Source of the DNA: Eubacteriales bacterium
Lineage (GTDB): Bacteria; Bacillota; Clostridia; Oscillospirales; CAG-272
Assembly: GCA_045644045.1 (NCBI GenBank)
Contig: JAZRGD010000099.1
Location: 7,126 to 71,125, forward strand
DNA length: 64,000 bases
Direction: 5' to 3'
Below, in pieces: positions 5,259 through 62,351 of this stretch (the stretch's first letter is position 1; each line of letters starts with the position of its first letter). The notes beneath the pieces were generated by a model. That model was not told the origin of the DNA and did no database searches. It was given only the letters and a program-made list of their open reading frames with translations. A program made the position numbers and the translations under genes.

Positions 5259-5280
5259 GTCGTATCCTTTCTTTGTTTAT

Positions 5281-5328
5281 TCGATGATTCGATGATTCGA
5301 TTATTTGATGATTCGATCATTTGATGCC
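5281..5328. repeat. 8-bp tandem repeat, about 6 units (plus strand TCGATGAT and variants), spanning the last codons of P3 and the P3-P2 spacer
   Basis: Read directly: tcgatgat tcgatgat tcgattat ttgatgat tcgatcat ttgatgcc. The P3 stop codon (rc of tca 5317-5319) lies inside unit 5. Confidence 0.8.
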
Positions 5329-7188: not shown

Positions 7189-7201
7189 TTCTCTTTTCTC
7201 T

Positions 7202-7238
7202 CCGCGCCCTCATCCGAGGGCGCGGCTCTTTCGTTTTT
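7202..7238 (+). promoter_or_regulatory. GC-rich intercistronic hairpin (CCGCGCCCTC-atcc-GAGGGCGCGG) with a T-rich tail on the plus strand, between P4 and P3
   Basis: 10-bp perfect stem read directly. The T-rich tract (ctctttcgttttt) follows it only on the plus (antisense) strand. On the mRNA strand the P3 SD follows it directly. Confidence 0.6.
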
Positions 7239-7241
7239 GCT

Positions 7242-10982: not shown

Positions 10983-10996
10983 TTCTCTTTCCTCCT

Positions 10997-11032
10997 CGCG
11001 CCCTCATCCGAGGGCGCGGCTCTTTCGTTTTT
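10997..11032 (+). promoter_or_regulatory. Second copy of the same intercistronic hairpin (CGCGCCCTC-atcc-GAGGGCGCG) between P6 and P5
   Basis: Near-identical sequence to 7202-7238 in the same position relative to the flanking genes. Confidence 0.6.
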
Positions 11033-11035
11033 GCT

Positions 11036-12883
11036 TTAATCTACCGTAAGGACTACTTCTCTGTAGCCCGCCGCGTCGGCAATGGCCTTGGCCGCAGGAT
11101 ATTTTTCGTACAAAGCGTCAAGGCTCTCCTCTACGGCGTAGAAGCCGAGAATGTTGTCTTGGTTCGGCTTGTGGTTGCCGCTTGGCTCAATGTCGGTGGT
11201 GGAATAGAAGTTCCGGGTGTGGACATGGTGGGTATACTGGCTTGGCACGTGATACTGGGTAAACAGGGGCATCGCGCAGTTGTCGATGACGTTGTCGTAC
11301 ACGTCCCAGTTAGAGGCCGAGCCGTCAAAGTAGTAACCGCGACGGTCGCGGTGTCCGATGTCCGTAAGAAGGGCAATATTGTCATGCACCGAGTTGAAGC
11401 GAACAGCATAGTCCTTGGTGCAGTTGGCCCCCGTCACGTAGATGGCGGCGCCGTCACGGCAGACGTCCATAAAATCACGGACGTCGTTGTAGGCGATCTC
11501 CACGTTTCTGAGATTGACCTTCTCACCCGGCTCGAAATCTACCTGACTATAACCGTCTCCCGCGGCAATACCCGAATAGGCACAGCCCTTGATGGTATTG
11601 TGAGAGATCTCACCCACGTCGCAGAAGCAGAGGAAGATGGCGGGGGAGCTGGGATAATCGTAAGCGATATTTTCAAGATAATTGTTGACGATCTTGACGT
11701 TATAGTTCTGATTTTGGGGATCTGACCAACCCCCGACACCCACGCGGTAGTTGCCCACCGAAATACCGCACATGGCCACGTTCACGAAGCGGCAGTCCCG
11801 CACCGTGGCGCTCACGGTGTGGTCGCAAAGCATCACGCCGTTGCCGCCCAGATCAAGGAAGGAGCAGCCCTTCACCGTAAAGCCTCTGGTATCCGAGGCA
11901 ACGATGGGAGCGTGGCGCAGCTTGCCCGCGCGGAACTCGCGGTTGGCAAGCGTGCCGAAATAGCCCGTGTCGCACACGTAGGGAGAGGTGAAGCCGGCAA
12001 AGGCGATCCCTTCCACCGTCACGTCCTTCATGCCCTTGAAGATAAAGGCGTTGGCAAGGGTGGTATAGCCAAACCTCATTCTCGCCATCTTTTCGGGATC
12101 GGAAGGGACTACGTAGATGGTACCTGTAAACCAGTCGTAGACAAAAGTATTAGGCTCGGTAAGGTAAGCAAGGTTGTTGACAAGGAAGGTCTCGCGGTTT
12201 CCAATGTTGTTGGCCTCATGTACCCCCTTGACGAATTGCTCGTCAAACTCCTCGTAGAACCGAACGAGGGCATAGGTCTCGCCCTTCACCTCGGCGGTGA
12301 CCGACAGATCCACTTCCTTCACGCGAAGGATATAATGCTGCCATTGCACGTAAATACGGAGCTGGGTGGCACCGACGTCCTTCCCCGCCACCTTTTCGAC
12401 AATATCGATGGGGGCGTACAAGCCCTCCACCTTCTCCTCTCCGCTTCTTTGGGCAGGGAGCAGAGGGAAGGGGTTACGCCACATGGGAGACCTTGCCATC
12501 TTCATGCGCTTCGTGCCGCAGAAAACGTCGTAGAACTTGGGGTACTCACCCGCTTCGTTCTTTTCCAGCTGATATTTGTAATAGGGAGTGCCCTCTACAG
12601 GGGTGAAGTCTGCGCCCGAAATAGATTTCAAAGGACAGACGGTGGGATACATGGAGGGCTTCGCCTTGATGGTCAGGCGGATATTTTGGAGGGCGGGGTT
12701 CTCCTCGGCGGAGAACACCAGGGGCGCGTCCAGGGTGTAGCTTCCCCTGTCAAGCTCCACCGTCACCTCGATCTTATTCTCGGGCGTAGCACCCTCTGCC
12801 AGAGCGAGAACCTTGTCAAGAAGCCCGTCAAGGGCATCGAGCGTCTCGGTCGTACTCGTTTTTTTCGTGATTGCAATAGCCAT
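11036..12883 (-). CDS. Beta-helix array paralog P6 (615 aa), promoter-proximal first gene of the array
   Basis: ORF track. SD AGGAGAGG upstream of the ATG. Motifs YVQWQHYILRVKEVDL, HNTIKGCAYSGIAAG, CRDGAAIYVTGANCTKDYA. Confidence 0.85.
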   Translation of the reverse strand: MAIAITKKTSTTETLDALDGLLDKVLALAEGATPENKIEVTVELDRGSYTLDAPLVFSAEENPALQNIRLTIKAKPSMYPTVCPLKSISGADFTPVEGTPYYKYQLEKNEAGEYPKFYDVFCGTKRMKMARSPMWRNPFPLLPAQRSGEEKVEGLYAPIDIVEKVAGKDVGATQLRIYVQWQHYILRVKEVDLSVTAEVKGETYALVRFYEEFDEQFVKGVHEANNIGNRETFLVNNLAYLTEPNTFVYDWFTGTIYVVPSDPEKMARMRFGYTTLANAFIFKGMKDVTVEGIAFAGFTSPYVCDTGYFGTLANREFRAGKLRHAPIVASDTRGFTVKGCSFLDLGGNGVMLCDHTVSATVRDCRFVNVAMCGISVGNYRVGVGGWSDPQNQNYNVKIVNNYLENIAYDYPSSPAIFLCFCDVGEISHNTIKGCAYSGIAAGDGYSQVDFEPGEKVNLRNVEIAYNDVRDFMDVCRDGAAIYVTGANCTKDYAVRFNSVHDNIALLTDIGHRDRRGYYFDGSASNWDVYDNVIDNCAMPLFTQYHVPSQYTHHVHTRNFYSTTDIEPSGNHKPNQDNILGFYAVEESLDALYEKYPAAKAIADAAGYREVVLTVD

Positions 12884-12955
12884 AGTGCTTTTCCTCTCCT
12901 GTGTGTGCGCGCGTGCGCGTAATAAACAAAAAGCAGCGAAGGCGCAAAAAGCGGA

Positions 12956-13075
12956 CTACGCAAGAAAAAGGCAACGGGCGGGGGGCTCTTGCCATAGTCT
13001 CGCGAAGTCTCCTTGAGCCTTCACTGCTTGAGGGGTGCGGTGATACCGCACTCGTCGTCTTATCGGGTTTCGCAT
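12956..13075 (-). CDS. Candidate leader sORF (39 codons: MRNPIRRRVRYHRTPQAVKAQGDFARLWQEPPARCLFLA) in the array leader
   Basis: The ATG (rc of cat 13073-13075) is preceded by AAGGAG (rc of 13082-13087) at 6 nt. The frame reads through a weak hairpin plus U-tract (GGCAA-N14-TTGCC-TTTTT) and stops at TAG 12956-12958. There is no homology evidence, so this is speculative. Confidence 0.25.
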   Translation of the reverse strand: MRNPIRRRVRYHRTPQAVKAQGDFARLWQEPPARCLFLA

Positions 13076-13154
13076 ACCTATCTCCTTTCGAAAGCGCGCA
13101 GCACTTTCCGCGGGAAGCGTCGGTTTTTCGGTCGGGACACGCCCAACCGTGGGT

Positions 13155-13183
13155 ATTATATCAAAAAAAACAGATATTGTCAA
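13155..13183 (-). promoter_or_regulatory. Sigma-A-type promoter of the beta-helix array (TTGACA-17 nt-TATAAT)
   Basis: The reverse complement reads TTGACAatatctgttttttttgaTATAAT, a perfect consensus at both hexamers with optimal spacing, ~265 nt upstream of the P6 ATG. Confidence 0.65.
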
Positions 13184-13294
13184 TGAAAATCGAGAATTTT
13201 CTGCAATTTTTTTTGCAAATTTTCGGTCATTTTTCGCCCTTTTTTCTTTCTCGCCCTCTTCTTTTGACTTTTCTGCTTTTTCTCTCCCCCGCCC

Positions 13295-13323
13295 TTGACT
13301 TTTCCCTTCTTATAAGGTATAAT
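13295..13323 (+). promoter_or_regulatory. Sigma-A-type promoter of ribF (TTGACT-17 nt-TATAAT)
   Basis: Read directly: TTGACTtttcccttcttataaggTATAAT, ~35 nt upstream of the ribF start. Confidence 0.6.
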
Positions 13324-13356
13324 GAAGAGTACGATGAAAAACGAAAGGAGAGCGGT

Positions 13357-14232
13357 GTGAAGGTCTGTTCCTATCCTTATCCCAAAGCCTTGTCCCCCAC
13401 CGTGGTGGCACTGGGCTGCTTTGACGGCACGCACGTGGGACACGCGGCGCTTTTTGCCGAGACGGTAAAGCTGGCAAACGCCTTGGACGCCGTCCCCGCC
13501 GTCTTTACCTTTTCGGATTTTCTGCCAAGCAAGGGCACGCCCCTCTCCACCCTCGACGACCGTCTCGCGGTCATGGAGGAGGCGGGTGTTGAGACCGTCT
13601 TTCTCTCCCCCTTTCACGAGGTCAAGGCACTGTCCGCCACGGATTTTATCCGCACCGTTTTGAAGGACGGGCTGGGTGCATTGGCCACCGTTTGCGGCTT
13701 TAATTACCGCTTCGGCGCGGGGGCGACGGGAGACGGTGAGACCTTAAAGCAGGCCTTTCCTCTCGCCGTACAGGTCCCTGCCGTCACCTATGGTGACGCC
13801 CCCATCTCCTCCTCCCGCATCCGAGCCGCGCTGACGGCGGGAGAGGTGGAGGAGGCCGCCGCCATGCTCGGCCGTCCCTATACCGTCAGGGGAGAGGTCA
13901 GCCACGGGAAAAGCGTGGGTCGCGCCTTCGGCTTCCCCACCGCCAATCTTGCCGTTTCCACCCTTCTGCCCGCCTACGGCGTGTACGAAACGAGGGTGAC
14001 GGTGGACGGCGTCGCCTATGCCGCCCTGTCCGACGTTGGGGTGCGTCCCACCGTGGAGGCGAAGGGCGAGGCAAGGGTGGAATCCTTCCTTTTGGATTTT
14101 GAGGGCGACTTATACGGAAGGACGCTTTCCGTCTCCTTCCTTCGCCGTCTGCGGGACGAGATGCGCTTTGATGGGGTAGAGGCTCTGAGGGCGCAGATAG
14201 AAAAAGATGTAAAAAGTATAAGAAGCAAATAG
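13357..14232 (+). CDS. ribF: Bifunctional riboflavin kinase / FAD synthetase
   Basis: GTG start with AAGGAG 6 nt upstream. Contains GCFDGTHVGH (nucleotidyltransferase motif) and a C-terminal riboflavin kinase-like region (GFPTANL...). The longer track ORF starting at 12901 is an upstream read-through artefact. Confidence 0.9.
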   Translation: MKVCSYPYPKALSPTVVALGCFDGTHVGHAALFAETVKLANALDAVPAVFTFSDFLPSKGTPLSTLDDRLAVMEEAGVETVFLSPFHEVKALSATDFIRTVLKDGLGALATVCGFNYRFGAGATGDGETLKQAFPLAVQVPAVTYGDAPISSSRIRAALTAGEVEEAAAMLGRPYTVRGEVSHGKSVGRAFGFPTANLAVSTLLPAYGVYETRVTVDGVAYAALSDVGVRPTVEAKGEARVESFLLDFEGDLYGRTLSVSFLRRLRDEMRFDGVEALRAQIEKDVKSIRSK

Positions 14233-16076: not shown

Positions 16077-17165
16077 ATGGCAAACCGTTTATTCCAAAGC
16101 GTTATCCACCAAATGAAGGATTCTGTCAGCCGCGTCATTGGCGTGATAGACGAAAACAGCATGATCACCGCCTGCACCGATATGAAGCGTATCGGTGAGA
16201 TGGTTCCCGAGGTCAGAGAGGAGCTGGTCTTCTCCGCCGTCACCTTACAGCAAAACGGCTATACCTACCGTTTTCTGACCACCTCCACGGGCAAGACCGA
16301 CTGTCTCGTTTTCGTTGAGGGAGAGGACAAGAAGGCAGAGGAGCTTTGCTCGGTTTTGTCGGTGTCTCTCGGTAGCATCAAGAATTTCTACGACGAGAAA
16401 TACGATAAGGGCTCCTTTATCAAGAACGTGATGCTGGACAACATCCTGCAAAGCGATATTTACATCAAGAGCAAGGAGCTGCACTTCGACAACGAGGCAC
16501 TCCACGTGGTCTTCCTGATCAAGTTTTACAGCCACACCGAAATGCTTCCCTACGAGATCGTGCAGGGTCTCTTCCCCGACAAGAACACCGATTACGTCAT
16601 CGGCGTGGGCGAGCAGGACATCGTGGTGGTGAAGGAGGTCGCCGTGGGCGAGGAGCCCGAGGATCTGGAGGAGCTGGCGGGCAGCATCGCCCACACCCTC
16701 AACTCCGAGTTCTACTCCAAGGTGGCCATCGGCATCTCCACCGTTGTGACGGGCTTGAAGGATCTGGCCCGCGCCTACAAGGAGGCGAGAGTCGCCCTTG
16801 AGGTAGGCAAGATGTTCGACACCGAAAAGAGCATCATCAGCTACGACAACCTGGGCATCGGCCGTCTCATCTATCAGCTTCCCACCACCCTGTGCGAGAT
16901 CTTCCTCCAAGAGGTGTTCAAGAAGGGCTCTCTCGAATCCCTCGACAGAGACACCCTCGACACGGTACAGCGCTTCTTCGAGTACAACCTGAACGTGTCC
17001 GAGACCTCTCGCAATCTTTTCGTACACCGCAACACGCTGGTCTACCGTCTGGAAAAGATCCGCAAGATCACAGGACTTGACCTGCGCAATTTCGACCAAG
17101 CCATCACCTTCAAGGTGGCACTGATGGTCAAGAAGTACCTGACCAACAAGCCCACCAAGTTCTGA
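16077..17165 (+). CDS. CdaR/PucR-family transcriptional regulator
   Basis: N-terminal diacid-recognition-like region (...VIGVIDENSMITACTD.KRIGE) and C-terminal PucR HTH (SETSRNLFVHRNTLVYRLEKIRKITGLDL). Confidence 0.8.
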   Translation: MANRLFQSVIHQMKDSVSRVIGVIDENSMITACTDMKRIGEMVPEVREELVFSAVTLQQNGYTYRFLTTSTGKTDCLVFVEGEDKKAEELCSVLSVSLGSIKNFYDEKYDKGSFIKNVMLDNILQSDIYIKSKELHFDNEALHVVFLIKFYSHTEMLPYEIVQGLFPDKNTDYVIGVGEQDIVVVKEVAVGEEPEDLEELAGSIAHTLNSEFYSKVAIGISTVVTGLKDLARAYKEARVALEVGKMFDTEKSIISYDNLGIGRLIYQLPTTLCEIFLQEVFKKGSLESLDRDTLDTVQRFFEYNLNVSETSRNLFVHRNTLVYRLEKIRKITGLDLRNFDQAITFKVALMVKKYLTNKPTKF

Positions 17166-38018: not shown

Positions 38019-38047
38019 TTGACATTTTAGTCTTATAATGTTATAAT
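38019..38047 (+). promoter_or_regulatory. Perfect-consensus sigma-A promoter (TTGACA-17 nt-TATAAT) for the AT-rich ORF, overlapped by TTAGTCYTATAA motifs
   Basis: Read directly. The motif ttagtcctataag (37963-37975) recurs as ttagtcttataat (38027-38039). The inverted pair CCTATAAG (37968-75) / CTTATAGG (38010-17) is a plausible operator. Confidence 0.55.
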
Positions 38048-38106: not shown

Positions 38107-38757
38107 ATGACAGAAGGAAAAAGTGAATTTGATACAAGGTATCAAAACTGGGAAACGTGGGTGATTCCAGGCAAAAATTGGTGGCCAATGCATGATCCAT
38201 GGAATTTTGAGCGCCAAAGGCTATACAAATTGCTCGGAATTAAAATAATCAAAAAAATTAAAAAAACCTATGGCGGCACCTATGAAACAGGAGAATACCA
38301 AATAACTAAAACCTCTGCGAACACATATAGCGTCGGCAAGAAAACTGAATCTTATAGTGTTCGCGATACTTATTATATCATTGGATATGATAAGGATAAA
38401 ATCACCGATCTTGAAAAATATGAAAAACTCAGGGAAACAATGGAACTCTTTTTAGCAGAAGCTGAAAAGAAATTCCCAACAAAGTATAACGACCGTGATA
38501 AATGGGAAAATATAACTCCCGCATATTTTAATTTCAAGACAAGACTTAAGCTGCGTTGGAAAAACGAGTTGATATTGTTTGCGACCTCCTGTCTTCTTAT
38601 TCTACCGGCACCCATTGTCTTAATTAAAACAATATTATATCATACAACTTTCAATAAAAAATTTTCAAAATATAGACCTTTGGCAAGCGATTACTTCGAT
38701 CGATTGAAAGAATTCGAAGAAGAGATTAAGAAGATTTGCAACTTTGACAACAATTGA
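38107..38757 (+). CDS. Hypothetical protein (216 aa), strongly AT-rich gene, Trp-rich N-terminus, one hydrophobic segment near the C-terminus
   Basis: ORF track. GGAGG 8 nt upstream of the ATG. Composition is visibly far more AT-rich than all neighbours. Hydrophobic LILFATSCLLILPAPIVLIKTIL. No family recognised. Confidence 0.6.
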   Translation: MTEGKSEFDTRYQNWETWVIPGKNWWPMHDPWNFERQRLYKLLGIKIIKKIKKTYGGTYETGEYQITKTSANTYSVGKKTESYSVRDTYYIIGYDKDKITDLEKYEKLRETMELFLAEAEKKFPTKYNDRDKWENITPAYFNFKTRLKLRWKNELILFATSCLLILPAPIVLIKTILYHTTFNKKFSKYRPLASDYFDRLKEFEEEIKKICNFDNN

Positions 38758-40714: not shown

Positions 40715-41707
40715 TTAACAAAGGAAAAGCACGCGGTCCTCGCCGTCGCCAAAGCGAAAAATATAAAGCTGCTTCTTCTCAGGGACCCAGACGGGAACGT
40801 CGATGGCAATGCCTGTTTTGTCCGCCGTTTCGGGCATGACGGGTCGGGTAGTTACGTATTGCGGACAAGGAAGGGGATTTTTGTCCTCTCCCCTTTTCTC
40901 GCCTGCCAACCAAAGCTCCTCATCATGCATATGTCCGCTGAGGCAGACCTTCACCCTGCCCGAAGCCTTAATGATACGCACCGCCTCTTCCACGTCCTCG
41001 ATCCAACCGCACAACGCCCCGACATAGGAAGTGGCAGTGTCGTGACCGTTCCACACCTCCAGCATCGCCTCGGCATCCTCGCGATATTCGTAATAAAAGG
41101 GCACGTGAGAAAACAGCAGCACGTCGTACTCCGTATCCAGCGCCACCTTCTCCAACCAAGCAAGCTGCGTCTTGCCGAACGCCCAAAGAGGGGTGGGATG
41201 CTCCGCCTCAATATCCGAGCCGTAGGGGATGGACAAAAAGACGAGGCGGGTGGCGGAAGAAGGAAAATCTACGTAATAATAGCACCCGTCGGTGTGATAG
41301 CGCGCAAGACCCGCGTCGTATTTTCCCTTGGTAAGCTCGTTCCAAAGCTCCGCCTTGAAGAAATCGGTGCCGACACCGTCGTGGTTGCCATTGATGAGCA
41401 ACACGGGACGCTTTACCGCCTCCGCAACGCGGTCAAAAAGCGCGGTCAGCGTTGCTTTCAACTTCTCGTTCGTAATATGCTGTCTTCTGCCGAGCATGGT
41501 CAAATTATCGCCAAGGTTTACGACCGCGTCGGGCGAGACCGCGTCCGTAATCAAGGCGAGCATCTCGCAAAGACGTGTCACCGCCTCCGCATCCGCCGCC
41601 GCAGCGTGAAGATCGGAAAACAGAGGGAAAACGAGAGACATGGGCGTTCTCACAGCCGCTACCTTTTGCGCCAAAGCTCTTGCGGCTTCCTTGAAATTAT
41701 CTTTCAT
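40715..41707 (-). CDS. Calcineurin-like metallophosphoesterase
   Basis: Motifs FSDLH, NLGDN, INGNHD, LFSHVP and SGHMHDE in canonical order. Confidence 0.8.
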   Translation of the reverse strand: MKDNFKEAARALAQKVAAVRTPMSLVFPLFSDLHAAAADAEAVTRLCEMLALITDAVSPDAVVNLGDNLTMLGRRQHITNEKLKATLTALFDRVAEAVKRPVLLINGNHDGVGTDFFKAELWNELTKGKYDAGLARYHTDGCYYYVDFPSSATRLVFLSIPYGSDIEAEHPTPLWAFGKTQLAWLEKVALDTEYDVLLFSHVPFYYEYREDAEAMLEVWNGHDTATSYVGALCGWIEDVEEAVRIIKASGRVKVCLSGHMHDEELWLAGEKRGEDKNPLPCPQYVTTRPVMPETADKTGIAIDVPVWVPEKKQLYIFRFGDGEDRVLFLC

Positions 41708-41977
41708 CGTGATTACTCTTTTCTAAAGTCATAGTACTTATGAGAAATCTCCTCACCGCGCGTATTATATCACGCTGTTCCATTTCTGTCAAGAGACTTT
41801 TACCTTTTGCCGCGCGGCAAGCCGAAAGCGCGCCATTGCGCGCGATCTCTTAACACCCCCGTAAATGCAAAATGCTTGCGCCGCAAAAATGGAACAAAGC
41901 ACCCGAAAGCCCTTGCATTTTCCTTCTCGGCATGCTATACTGTACCCATAAAAAACATTCCGCAAGGAGATCAGACG

Positions 41978-60595: not shown

Positions 60596-60763
60596 GATGA
60601 AGCTTTTTGGGAAAGTCGCCGTCAGGCGTGCCGAAGGAGTCATACTCTCAGGAATCCGCAAGGATAGGACCGAAAGCAGAGGAATCTCTGGAGAATCTCA
60701 CCCCGTGTGAGTGCCGAAGGTGCAAGGCGAAAGCCGAATCTCTCAGGCAAAAGGACAGAGGAA
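60596..60763 (+). ncRNA. Tandem glycine riboswitch (two aptamers)
   Basis: Aptamer 2 is CTCTGGAGAAtctcacc...gtgCCGAAGGTGCAAgg...CTCTCAGGCAAAAGGACAGAG. Aptamer 1 is more degenerate (...gtgCCGAAGGAGtcatactCTCAGGaatccgcAAGGAtAGGAC). A terminator and an AGCS symporter gene lie downstream. Confidence 0.85.
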
Positions 60764-60814
60764 AAATAAGCGTCCCCCGCGCTTCCCCTTTTCCTATTCT
60801 TTTTTCTTCACGAT

Positions 60815-60881: not shown

Positions 60882-62351
60882 ATGCAAGAATTTTTACTCA
60901 ACATCGTGGCAAACATCAACACCTACCTCTCGAACTACGTTCTGCTCGTTCTTTTGGTAGGCACCGGTCTCTACTTCTCCATCCGTACCCGCTTCGTTCA
61001 GGTCCGTTGCTTCGGCGAGGGCATGAAGAACGTATTCGGAAATATTAAGCTTAAGGGCGGAAGCAAGGAAGGCGGCATCTCCTCCTTCCAGGCACTTGCC
61101 ACCGCCGTTGCCGCGCAGGTCGGTACGGGTAACATCGTCGGTGCCTGCGGCGCCATCCTCATCGGTGGTCCCGGTGCCATCTTCTGGATGTGGGTCATCG
61201 CCTTCCTCGGCATGGCTACCATCTACGCCGAGGCGATCCTCGCGCAGAAGACCCGCGTGACCAACCCCGACGGCTCTGTGGAGGGCGGTCCCGTTTACTA
61301 CATCAAGACAGCGTTTAAGGGCAAGTTCGGCAAGTTCCTCGCCGCTTTCTTCTCCGTGGCCGCTATCATCGCCCTCGGCTTCGTAGGCGCAATGGTACAG
61401 TCCAACTCCATCGCCTCCAACTTCGCCAACGTATTCAGCTCCTTGGGCATTAACGCCTCCTTCACCATCGGCAACACCGAGTTCAACTGGATCATGCTCA
61501 TCGTCGGTGCTATCGTGGCCGCCTTCGCGGGCTTCGTTCTGCTGGGCGGTGTTAAGCGTTTGGCCTCCGTTACCGAGAAGCTGGTTCCCCTGATGGCTAT
61601 CATATATCTGGTTGGCGGCCTTCTCGTCCTTTGCATCAACATCACCAGCGTACCCAAGGCCTTCGGCATGATCTTCAAGTATGCCTTCGCGCCTCAGGCT
61701 CTCGTCGGCGGTGCCTTCGGTGCGGCCATCTCCAAGGCCATCACCCAGGGTGCTAAGCGCGGCCTGTTCTCCAACGAGGCAGGTATGGGTTCTACCCCTC
61801 ACGCCCACGCTCTTGCTGACGTAAAGAAGCCCCACGACCAAGGCACCTCCGCCATGATCGGCGTGTTCATCGACACCTTCGTCGTGCTGACCATGACCGC
61901 TCTCGTGGTCATCTCCACCCTCTACTGCAACGGCACCATCACCCCCGAGACCTATGCGGCAGGCAACGCGGGCATTTCCAACGCCACCATGGCGCAGAGT
62001 GCCTTCGCCTTCACCTTCAGCAAGCTCTTCGGTGCTACGGCAGGTACGGTCATCGGTAACATCTTCGTTGCCGTCTGTCTCCTGTTCTTCGCCTTCTCCA
62101 CCATCCTCAGCTGGAACTACTTCGGTAAGGTAAACTTCACCAACCTCTTCGGCAAGAAGTCCGTGACGGTTTACTCCGTTCTGGCTACCCTCTTCGTATT
62201 CCTCGGCTCCGCCTTCAAGAACGACCTGGTTTGGGAGCTGACCGATATGTTCAATAACCTGATGGTCATCCCCAACGTCATCGCCCTCTGGGCACTCGCA
62301 AGCATGGTGGTCGTTGCCGCTAAGAACGCCAAGAAGAACACGCTCGAATAA
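60882..62351 (+). CDS. Alanine/glycine:cation symporter (AGCS family)
   Basis: GGISSFQALATAVAAQVGTGNIVG... and GLFSNEAGMGS motifs, ~11 TM segments, glycine riboswitch upstream. Confidence 0.9.
   Translation: MQEFLLNIVANINTYLSNYVLLVLLVGTGLYFSIRTRFVQVRCFGEGMKNVFGNIKLKGGSKEGGISSFQALATAVAAQVGTGNIVGACGAILIGGPGAIFWMWVIAFLGMATIYAEAILAQKTRVTNPDGSVEGGPVYYIKTAFKGKFGKFLAAFFSVAAIIALGFVGAMVQSNSIASNFANVFSSLGINASFTIGNTEFNWIMLIVGAIVAAFAGFVLLGGVKRLASVTEKLVPLMAIIYLVGGLLVLCINITSVPKAFGMIFKYAFAPQALVGGAFGAAISKAITQGAKRGLFSNEAGMGSTPHAHALADVKKPHDQGTSAMIGVFIDTFVVLTMTALVVISTLYCNGTITPETYAAGNAGISNATMAQSAFAFTFSKLFGATAGTVIGNIFVAVCLLFFAFSTILSWNYFGKVNFTNLFGKKSVTVYSVLATLFVFLGSAFKNDLVWELTDMFNNLMVIPNVIALWALASMVVVAAKNAKKNTLE

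Follow-up and report, generated by a model that had tools for sequence, protein, structure and literature searches.

The window analyzed here is a 64,000-nucleotide (nt) stretch of contig JAZRGD010000099.1 from a Eubacteriales bacterium (GenBank assembly GCA_045644045.1), and the subject of this work is the leader that precedes a tandem array of beta-helix genes on its minus strand (Table 1). The array consists of at least seven PF13229 paralogs of ~610 amino acids (aa) each, which fill the stretch between 12883 and the window start and lie 18 to 58 nt apart, and its seventh gene begins near 1567 and continues beyond the window. The leader measures 265 nt from the end of the -10 hexamer to the ATG of gene 1 and contains a 5'-terminal hairpin, a small open reading frame (sORF) with its own Shine-Dalgarno (SD) sequence, and a 95-nt hairpin followed by a U-tract. 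The original prediction, made from the letters of the window, had described a perfect-consensus promoter, a leader of ~265 nt, the hairpins GGTTGGG/CCCGACC and GTGCGGT/ACCGCAC, and an AAGGAG-6 nt-ATG frame of 39 codons; all of these were confirmed, the sORF exactly in both coordinates and translation.

Both promoter hexamers and the TG dinucleotide were retained in the seven homologs compared below, and transcription is predicted to start at ~13148. Only two promoter-like sites were recognized in the intergenic region between ribF and the array, and none was found in the interval between the terminator and the ATG of gene 1. Since the array lacks a promoter downstream of the terminator, every array transcript must read through it, and the operon gated by the terminator spans at least 13 kb.

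Table 1. Features of the leader and its surroundings in the window
Feature	Position	Strand	Description
Sigma-70-type promoter	13155..13183	-	TTGACA-17-TATAAT, 12/12 match; TG-extended -10 (TG 13163..13162)
5'-terminal hairpin	13129..13149	-	GGTTGGG/CCCGACC (CGGUUGGG/CCCGACCG), at the predicted RNA 5' end
Outer helix	13117..13113 with 13085..13082	-	(C)UUCC with GGAG of the SD; 96% paired, no covariation
Inner hairpin before start codon	13108..13090	-	GAAAGUGC/GCGCUUUC; 100% of cells paired, 3/7 pairs compensatory
Shine-Dalgarno sequence	13081..13088	-	AAAGGAGA (AAGGAG 13087..13082), within the invariant 15-nt block CTTTCGAAAGGAGAT (six genomes)
sORF	12956..13075	-	MRNPIRRRVRYHRTPQAVKAQGDFARLWQEPPARCLFLA; ATG at 13075, 6-nt spacer from SD, 39 codons plus TAG (12958..12956)
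Tandem CGA-CGA	13052..13057	-	Codons 7 and 8; candidate regulatory or slow codons, 7/7 homologs
Small hairpin	13035..13051	-	GUGCGGU-auc-ACCGCAC, directly after the CGA pair
Terminator hairpin	12933..13027	-	95 nt, -48.1 kcal/mol; basal, middle, and apical stems
Apical hairpin plus U5	12965..12993	-	GGCAAGAGC...GCCCGUUGCC (GGCAA-N14-TTGCC-TTTTT), tip of the 95-nt hairpin
Invariant 19-mer	12956..12974	-	TTGCCTTTTTCTTGCGTAG; 3' side of apical and middle stems plus sORF stop
Terminator U-tract	12921..12932	-	UUUUUGUUUAUU; after the sORF stop, 37 nt before gene 1
Array gene 1	11036..12883	-	Beta-helix (PF13229, Pfam match); first gene of the regulated target
ribF	start GTG 13357	+	SD AAAGGAGAG; own promoter 13295..13323 (11/12 match); divergent from array
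PucR/CdaR-family regulator	16077..17165	+	GGDEF_2 + HTH_30; after ribF-prmA-rsmE, four genes away

Conservation and structure of the leader RNA

The leader was compared across seven sequences, namely, the window and six distinct loci (L001, L002, L004, L009, L010, and L021, with L005 identical to L004). These loci were obtained from the contigs of gene 1 homologs, which occur only in uncultured Clostridia metagenome-assembled genomes (MAGs) and metagenome assemblies, and they share the same order of ribF and array around an intergenic region of 445 to 527 nt. Invariant columns were compared in a six-genome alignment that leaves L021 outside, and structure statistics were calculated from all seven sequences. 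In the six genomes, 42% of the leader columns were invariant, versus 14% of the third codon positions in ribF and 11% in gene 1, and the longest invariant runs were 15 and 19 nt in the leader versus 11 nt in ribF and 7 nt in gene 1; the 19-mer carried a single change in L021. Common to all seven sequences were the promoter, a 5' hairpin of varying form, the block CTTTCG(A/G)AAGGAGAT, the ATG, the long hairpin, and a tail of 5 to 8 U residues. Conservation upstream of homologous arrays, which the original prediction had proposed as a check, was thus found, with the leader arrangement kept in seven diverged genomes and base pairs that covary.

The leader folded with a z score of -3.0 relative to shuffles. 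In the consensus structure, 94.4% of the alignment cells were paired, versus 41 to 54% when the partners were slid, with 12 compensatory pairs versus 2 to 6 in these controls, and the covariation score was reached by none of 500 shuffles. Such statistics, derived from seven related sequences, support the leader structure and do not prove it. Several conserved pairs were G-U pairs, indicating that the structure belongs to the minus-strand RNA. Every homolog formed the 5'-terminal hairpin, in varying sequence and length, in its minimum-free-energy fold, and this hairpin is probably a 5' stabilizer. The two-tier structure before the start codon (13082..13117), in which the outer helix pairs part of the SD, was recovered independently in the fold of each homolog. 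Compensatory changes were observed in five of the six pairs of the small hairpin, but only 79% of its cells were paired, and it was displaced in L002.

The hairpin at the end of the leader is built on an 11-bp basal stem (GCAGUGAAGGC/GCCUUCGCUGC) that the U-tract follows immediately. Its energy was between -46 and -54 kcal/mol in all seven homologs, each with 5 to 8 U residues directly behind the basal stem, and its three helices were 92 to 100% paired with four compensatory pairs, versus 41 to 54% paired in slid-partner controls. As modeled, this hairpin and U-tract make up a strong canonical intrinsic terminator. The GGCAA-N14-TTGCC-T5 element had previously been taken for a weak terminator; it does lie at 12993..12965, but it is merely the apex of the 95-nt hairpin, the terminator being strong and its U-tract lying further downstream. 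The apical hairpin itself (-6.5 to -10.3 kcal/mol) comprised eight pairs, was 100% paired, and was nearly invariant. Conserved U-runs occurred at 12969..12965 and 12950..12946, and the apical hairpin with its U5 may serve as a pause site for RNA polymerase.

The leader sORF

The SD and the ATG of the sORF were retained in 7/7 homologs. In L021, the block around the SD reads CTTTCGGAAGGAGAT, so that the core AAGGAGAT is kept throughout, and the spacer between SD and ATG varied in L010 and L021, with the ATG remaining at 5 to 6 nt. The frame and the 39-codon length were identical in six of the seven homologs, in which the sORF crosses the 5' arm and apex of the terminator and stops in the 3' arm. 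In L021, a 1-nt deletion creates a UGA at codon 18 within GCAGUGAAG, at the 5' base of the terminator, so that the sORF is reduced to 17 codons and its stop lies in the 5' arm, while the RNA structure remains intact despite the frameshift (-53.9 kcal/mol). The variable sORF columns were distributed over codon positions 1, 2, and 3 as 18, 21, and 22, respectively, and this lack of a third-position excess indicates selection on the nucleotides rather than on the peptide. Six sORF peptides searched against Pfam and NCBIfam gave no match at an E value of ≤1, PF10940 (DUF2618) included. A functional small protein, a ribosomally synthesized and post-translationally modified peptide precursor, or a toxin was rejected as an identity for the sORF product, considering the missing third-position excess, the L021 frameshift, the absence of a hydrophobic helix, and the absence of a family match.

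Four features conserved in all seven homologs were not explained by pairing, namely, the SD, the ATG, the Arg at codon 2, and the CGA-CGA at codons 7 and 8. The Arg at codon 2 was retained through a synonymous CGA/AGA switch, and CGA-CGA was the only invariant block within the otherwise variable codons 3 to 16 and was left without a partner in the consensus structure. Among the Arg codons, CGA is the least frequent, accounting for 4.2% of the Arg codons in 22 window genes and 2.1% in the array, and none of the 26 Arg-Arg pairs in the 22 window genes was written CGA-CGA. No tRNA gene was found in the window, which therefore gives no information on CGA decoding. Of the Arg run that the original prediction had singled out, codon 2 and the CGA pair were conserved and the rest was not. 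Taken together, start signals, a cluster of identical codons, and RNA structure around an otherwise unconstrained peptide constitute the signature of a regulatory leader ORF.

Proposed ribosome-dependent attenuation and alternative explanations

A conserved antiterminator was sought by co-transcriptional intermediate folds, by blocking either arm of the terminator, and by fixing a ribosome at the CGA codons, and no conserved alternative pairing was found. With the ribosome fixed at codons 7 and 8, the consensus fold still contained the full terminator (-53.4 versus -54.0 kcal/mol). A local hairpin of the 5' arm (GAAG../..CUUC), the sole alternative seen when either arm was blocked or the transcript was truncated, was absent in L001, and the antiterminator pairings checked by hand (GCUUUC/GAAGGC, CCUUUU/GAAAGG, and CGACGA with downstream segments) were all weak or not conserved. 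Since no RNA fold competes with the terminator, the antiterminator would be the ribosome itself. In a footprint scan, in which positions -12 to +15 relative to the P site were blocked with the polymerase at the U-tract, the basal stem was lost in every homolog only when the P site stood at about codons 12 to 24; in L021, the codon range that masks the basal stem includes its stop codon.

On these grounds, we give about an even chance to the reading that the element is a ribosome-dependent (leader-ORF) transcription attenuator of the array. The leader RNA made from the consensus promoter would carry a 5' hairpin that protects it, an SD that is strong though in part sequestered, and a short ORF, and a polymerase bound for the array would have to pass the 95-nt hairpin and its U-tract. 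A ribosome that has initiated and moved past the CGA pair would sit at codons ~12 to 24 and cover the 5' arm of the basal stem, allowing transcription of the array; in L021, with its short ORF, a ribosome at the stop codon would do the masking instead. Conversely, termination at ~12925 would result when the SD is paired with UUCC and no ribosome loads, or when a ribosome is held at CGA-CGA by low charged Arg-tRNA or poor translation capacity. The invariant apical hairpin and U-run probably pause the polymerase so that the ribosome can catch up. When ribosomes stop only a few nucleotides away from an intrinsic terminator, its efficiency falls from ~90% to <10%, whereas a terminator located in the initial ~100 nt of an ORF remains active unless transcription and translation are coupled through pausing, which is the case in pyrBI (PMC4824070). 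The original prediction had proposed a translation-dependent attenuator; the general idea is supported by the conserved SD and ATG, the covarying terminator between the only promoter and the array, and the lack of a conserved antiterminator fold, while several of its details had to be revised. The sequences and their comparison show the promoter, the conserved SD, ATG, and CGA-CGA, the covarying terminator, and the lack of both another promoter for the array and a conserved antiterminator; we infer that the sORF is translated, that the ribosome masks the basal stem as described, that the polymerase pauses and, in vivo, terminates, and that arginine or translation capacity is the signal.

Compared with known regulatory systems, the element would work most like the pyrBI/pyrE class of enterobacteria, in which a leader ORF likewise overlaps the terminator hairpin, the ribosome blocks this hairpin with no need for an RNA antiterminator, and U-rich stretches precede the termination point. 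Coupling of this kind needs a pause (PMC4824070). UTP-sensitive pause sites and pyrimidine genes mark the pyrBI type; the leader here has conserved U-runs, and its downstream genes encode beta-helix proteins instead. Further differences are that tandem rare Arg codons are present, that the host belongs to Clostridia, and that the terminator is a 95-nt hairpin with the stop codon inside. In the speF leader of Salmonella and Escherichia coli, translation of orf34 (SpeFL) similarly prevents premature termination, and two early consecutive Arg codons report arginine availability (PMC6386406), but speF involves Rho-dependent termination, RNase G, and a conserved DUF2618 peptide, whereas the terminator here is intrinsic and the peptide unconserved. 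The trpL, hisL, pheL, and leu attenuators share the promoter-proximal sORF with an SD, regulatory codons, an intrinsic terminator, and an otherwise variable peptide; unlike them, our element has no conserved antiterminator or anti-antiterminator, only two regulatory codons, targets that are not biosynthetic, and a predicted logic that is inverted, with stalling leading to termination. The vmlR, msrD, and hflXr leaders of Firmicutes, which respond to antibiotics, also combine a short leader ORF and an intrinsic terminator in a Gram-positive 5' leader, but they stall to free an antiterminator and control resistance genes, and neither the fold nor the context is present here. A STAB-SD, as in cry3A of Bacillus thuringiensis, resembles the element in placing a near-perfect SD (GAAAGGAG) far upstream in a long Firmicutes-type leader (PMC4113751); it directs no initiation, however, whereas here an ATG is conserved at 5 to 6 nt and a terminator precedes the gene. 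The conserved ATG at optimal spacing argues for initiation. Of the hallmarks of leader-peptide attenuators, the sORF with its own SD, the intrinsic terminator, and candidate regulatory codons (two only) were present and a mutually exclusive antiterminator was absent, and the leader ORF reads into and through the hairpin as in the pyrBI type. The element is not a riboswitch, a T-box, or a SpeFL homolog, and it is probably not a STAB-SD in the narrow meaning of the term.

Several points weigh against ribosome-dependent attenuation. The start site, termination, and sORF translation are all predicted from sequence, and the alignment of seven sequences comes from one narrow clade, which makes the covariation statistics weak and partly a matter of kinship. 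By our own estimate, frame 0 would remain open by chance across the variable codons with a probability of ~0.03 to 0.05, a modest improbability only, and frame +2 was likewise open in four of six homologs. The 19-mer is conserved beyond what pairing needs and beyond its partner, which could indicate a trans-acting factor. Moreover, the 11-bp basal stem can thermodynamically re-form behind a ribosome at codons 25 to 39, so that readthrough would depend on kinetics and need a specific lag between ribosome and polymerase, and the Bacillus polymerase is reported to outrun ribosomes, which would make ribosome-mediated control harder. Finally, it is not evident why genes for beta-helix proteins, which may be glycosidase-like, should be switched off when Arg-tRNA runs short. 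The structure and conservation of the leader are well supported, and the proposed mechanism is plausible.

The conservation of the 19-mer also bears on a rather unlikely alternative, a factor-dependent attenuator, in which an RNA-binding protein, a small RNA, or a small ligand acts on invariant parts of the leader to prevent or promote the terminator, the SD being merely a 30S-binding stabilizer of the STAB-SD type or incidental. Candidate sites are the CGAAA internal loop beside the SD and the 19-mer (UUGCCUUUUUCUUGCGUAG), which stays unchanged opposite a varying partner, as in L001, whose 5' arm carries differences at three positions. Such a factor would fit a peptide that is not under selection and a syntenic PucR/CdaR-type regulator, though one of a DNA-binding type, and SD-like stabilizers that do not initiate translation are known in Firmicutes leaders (PMC4113751). 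A pure STAB-SD, however, needs no ATG at 5 to 6 nt in 7/7 homologs despite a varying spacer, and the conserved CGA-CGA is left unexplained. For a ligand, the leader offers neither an Rfam or T-box match nor a conserved alternative fold to switch, the 5' region where an aptamer would be expected is the least conserved part and bears large indels, and no RNA-binding antiterminator gene was found among the scanned neighbors of the arrays. It is decidedly unlikely that the leader is a stand-alone small gene, giving an abundant ~220-nt RNA (a small-protein mRNA or a dual-function small RNA) with constitutive leak-through into the array and no conditional control. The compact, self-contained unit of consensus promoter, 5' hairpin, and strong terminator is typical of abundant small RNAs, but its peptide shows poor conservation and L021 carries a frameshift, and the unit lies always and only directly upstream of ribF-adjacent arrays, scans of three large collections having given no copy elsewhere and the window no second one. 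In addition, conserved terminators in 5' leaders are usually regulatory, and since the array has no promoter of its own, the terminator necessarily gates the operon.

Two further alternatives, both very improbable, place the signal in ribosome stalling. A nascent-peptide arrest at Pro-Pro (EPPAR, EF-P dependent) or at the C-terminal ...A-x-CLFLA-stop, with metabolite sensing as in TnaC or SpeFL, would hold the terminator open; it could draw on the conservation of AVK, FA(R/K), Q, A, and CLFLA in six homologs and on the stop codon inside the hairpin. These residues, however, fall on paired or invariant RNA positions where third codon positions are equally conserved, L021 loses the entire C-terminal half while keeping the RNA structure, and in the footprint model a ribosome at the stop codon leaves the basal stem unblocked. 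Pausing at EPPAR, as originally suggested, was rejected, since Pro-Pro is present only in the window (1/7) and the other sequences read ERPAH, ERPAL, ERPAF, EHDAL, and VHFAL. Equally improbable is a classical starvation attenuator of the trp/his type, in which stalling at the Arg codons frees an antiterminator and the array is turned on when arginine is scarce: a leader ORF that precedes a terminator does contain tandem regulatory-type codons near its start, but no conserved 2:3-type pairing was found, and a ribosome at codons 7 and 8 left the terminator standing in the consensus and likewise in every single-sequence scan.

Within the reading as a ribosome-dependent attenuator, one specific version is possible though doubtful, namely, an "inverse" attenuator in which the pioneer ribosome must clear the CGA pair fast enough to mask the terminator, with the pause at hairpin and U-run as the timer. 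It would report charged tRNA-Arg or overall translation capacity, positively coupled to transcription of an operon of 7 to at least 12 beta-helix genes. To our knowledge, such logic has not been described for Clostridia, and it differs from all starvation-induced amino-acid attenuators. If the reading as a ribosome-dependent attenuator is correct, a cis-regulatory leader supported by covariation and not represented in Rfam would join the few such transcription attenuators known outside proteobacteria. Its design would be unusual, with the ribosome as sole antiterminator, a positive logic, and the rare tandem CGA as probable sensor. At ~230 nt, the element is short and self-contained, and no other control point is visible for the large and expanding tandem beta-helix family, which belongs to uncultured Clostridia of gut or rumen type; identifying the signal of the leader would help to reveal the function of the beta-helix genes.

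Distribution of the element and other features of the window

At the gathering score, Rfam matched no family to the leader in the window and five homologous loci, a negative outcome for the check that the original prediction had proposed, and at an E value of ≤10 on 12800..13400 the leader gave just spurious microRNA and small nucleolar RNA matches. The riboswitch that had been suggested as another identity is unsupported and was rejected, with no Rfam family, a 5' domain that is the least conserved part, and no alternative fold. The T-box model RF00230 was not matched in the leader, although the same search did find a T-box leader (112.7 bits) in L004, a related MAG, at 13940..14164, upstream of an aspartyl/asparaginyl-tRNA synthetase-gatCAB cluster. 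A BglG/SacY-type ribonucleic antiterminator site was also rejected; GGCAAGAGCC resembles its 3' half but lacks a matching 5' half and is wrongly positioned.

The distribution of the element was scanned by exact-word search with two invariant leader blocks. This search gave three chance matches in the GTDB representative genomes (the start of HPr, an ABC transporter, and another gene) and five in the JGI metagenomes, none of them the element, and no match in IMG/VR; within the window, no second leader copy was found. Within these searches, the element is limited to a few MAGs from ENA, Logan, and NCBI that belong to a narrow uncultured clade. More distant arrays lacked it: L011 has a leader of 85 nt, and in L020 the array stands behind galT.

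Upstream of the leader and divergent from the array lie ribF, prmA, rsmE, and the PucR/CdaR-type regulator. The original prediction had seen no regulator adjoining the array, which is not quite right, considering that this gene is four genes away in conserved synteny; it occupies the same place in L001, L002, L004, L005, L009, and L010, and the L021 contig stops short of it. The long plus-strand ORF 12901..14232, which spans the leader, corresponds to ribF with an artefactually extended 5' end. An alternating purine-pyrimidine tract, ACGCGCACGCGCGCACACAC, is located at 12900..12919 on the minus strand, after the terminator and before the ribosome-binding site of gene 1, and similar CG/CA-rich tracts precede gene 1 in the leaders of L009 and L011, the latter having no attenuator.

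By our own arithmetic, ~0.008 perfect TTGACA-17-TATAAT sequences would be expected per window, versus three present (13183, minus strand; 38019, plus strand; and 41792, minus strand). The leader promoter is real but not unique, the host simply employing consensus promoters. The perfect TG-extended promoter at 38019 precedes a 216-aa ORF (38107..38757) that has no Pfam match, and the one at 41792 precedes a gene for a calcineurin-like phosphoesterase (41707..40715). Elsewhere in the window, a glycine riboswitch aptamer (RF00504, 62.6 bits) was detected at 60678..60768 on the plus strand, upstream of a sodium:alanine symporter family gene (60882..62351).

The array proteins have no evident signal peptides and show faint similarity to the parallel beta-helix structure 9rx2 (E = 2e-6) and to the GH141 enzyme BT_1002 (E = 0.015). 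In a related MAG (L010 and L018, one assembly), 13 such genes, complete or partial, are spread over two contigs. In the distant relative L020 (4585..6147), the beta-helix array directly follows a galactose-1-phosphate uridylyltransferase gene with a 56-nt gap, a hint that the array may be connected with the metabolism of sugars or UDP-sugars. Within the window, the intergenic segments 10983..11035 and 7189..7241 are nearly identical, both with the hairpin CCGCGCCCTCGGATGAGGGCGCG, and the N termini of genes 2 and 4 are almost identical as well, which points to a recent two-gene segmental duplication. This hairpin is followed by a T-run on the plus strand and would therefore terminate antisense transcription. 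Another spacer of the array (5259..5316) contains tandem repeats of the ATCGAATC type (TCGAATCATCAAATAATCGAATCATCGAATCATCGAATAAAC).

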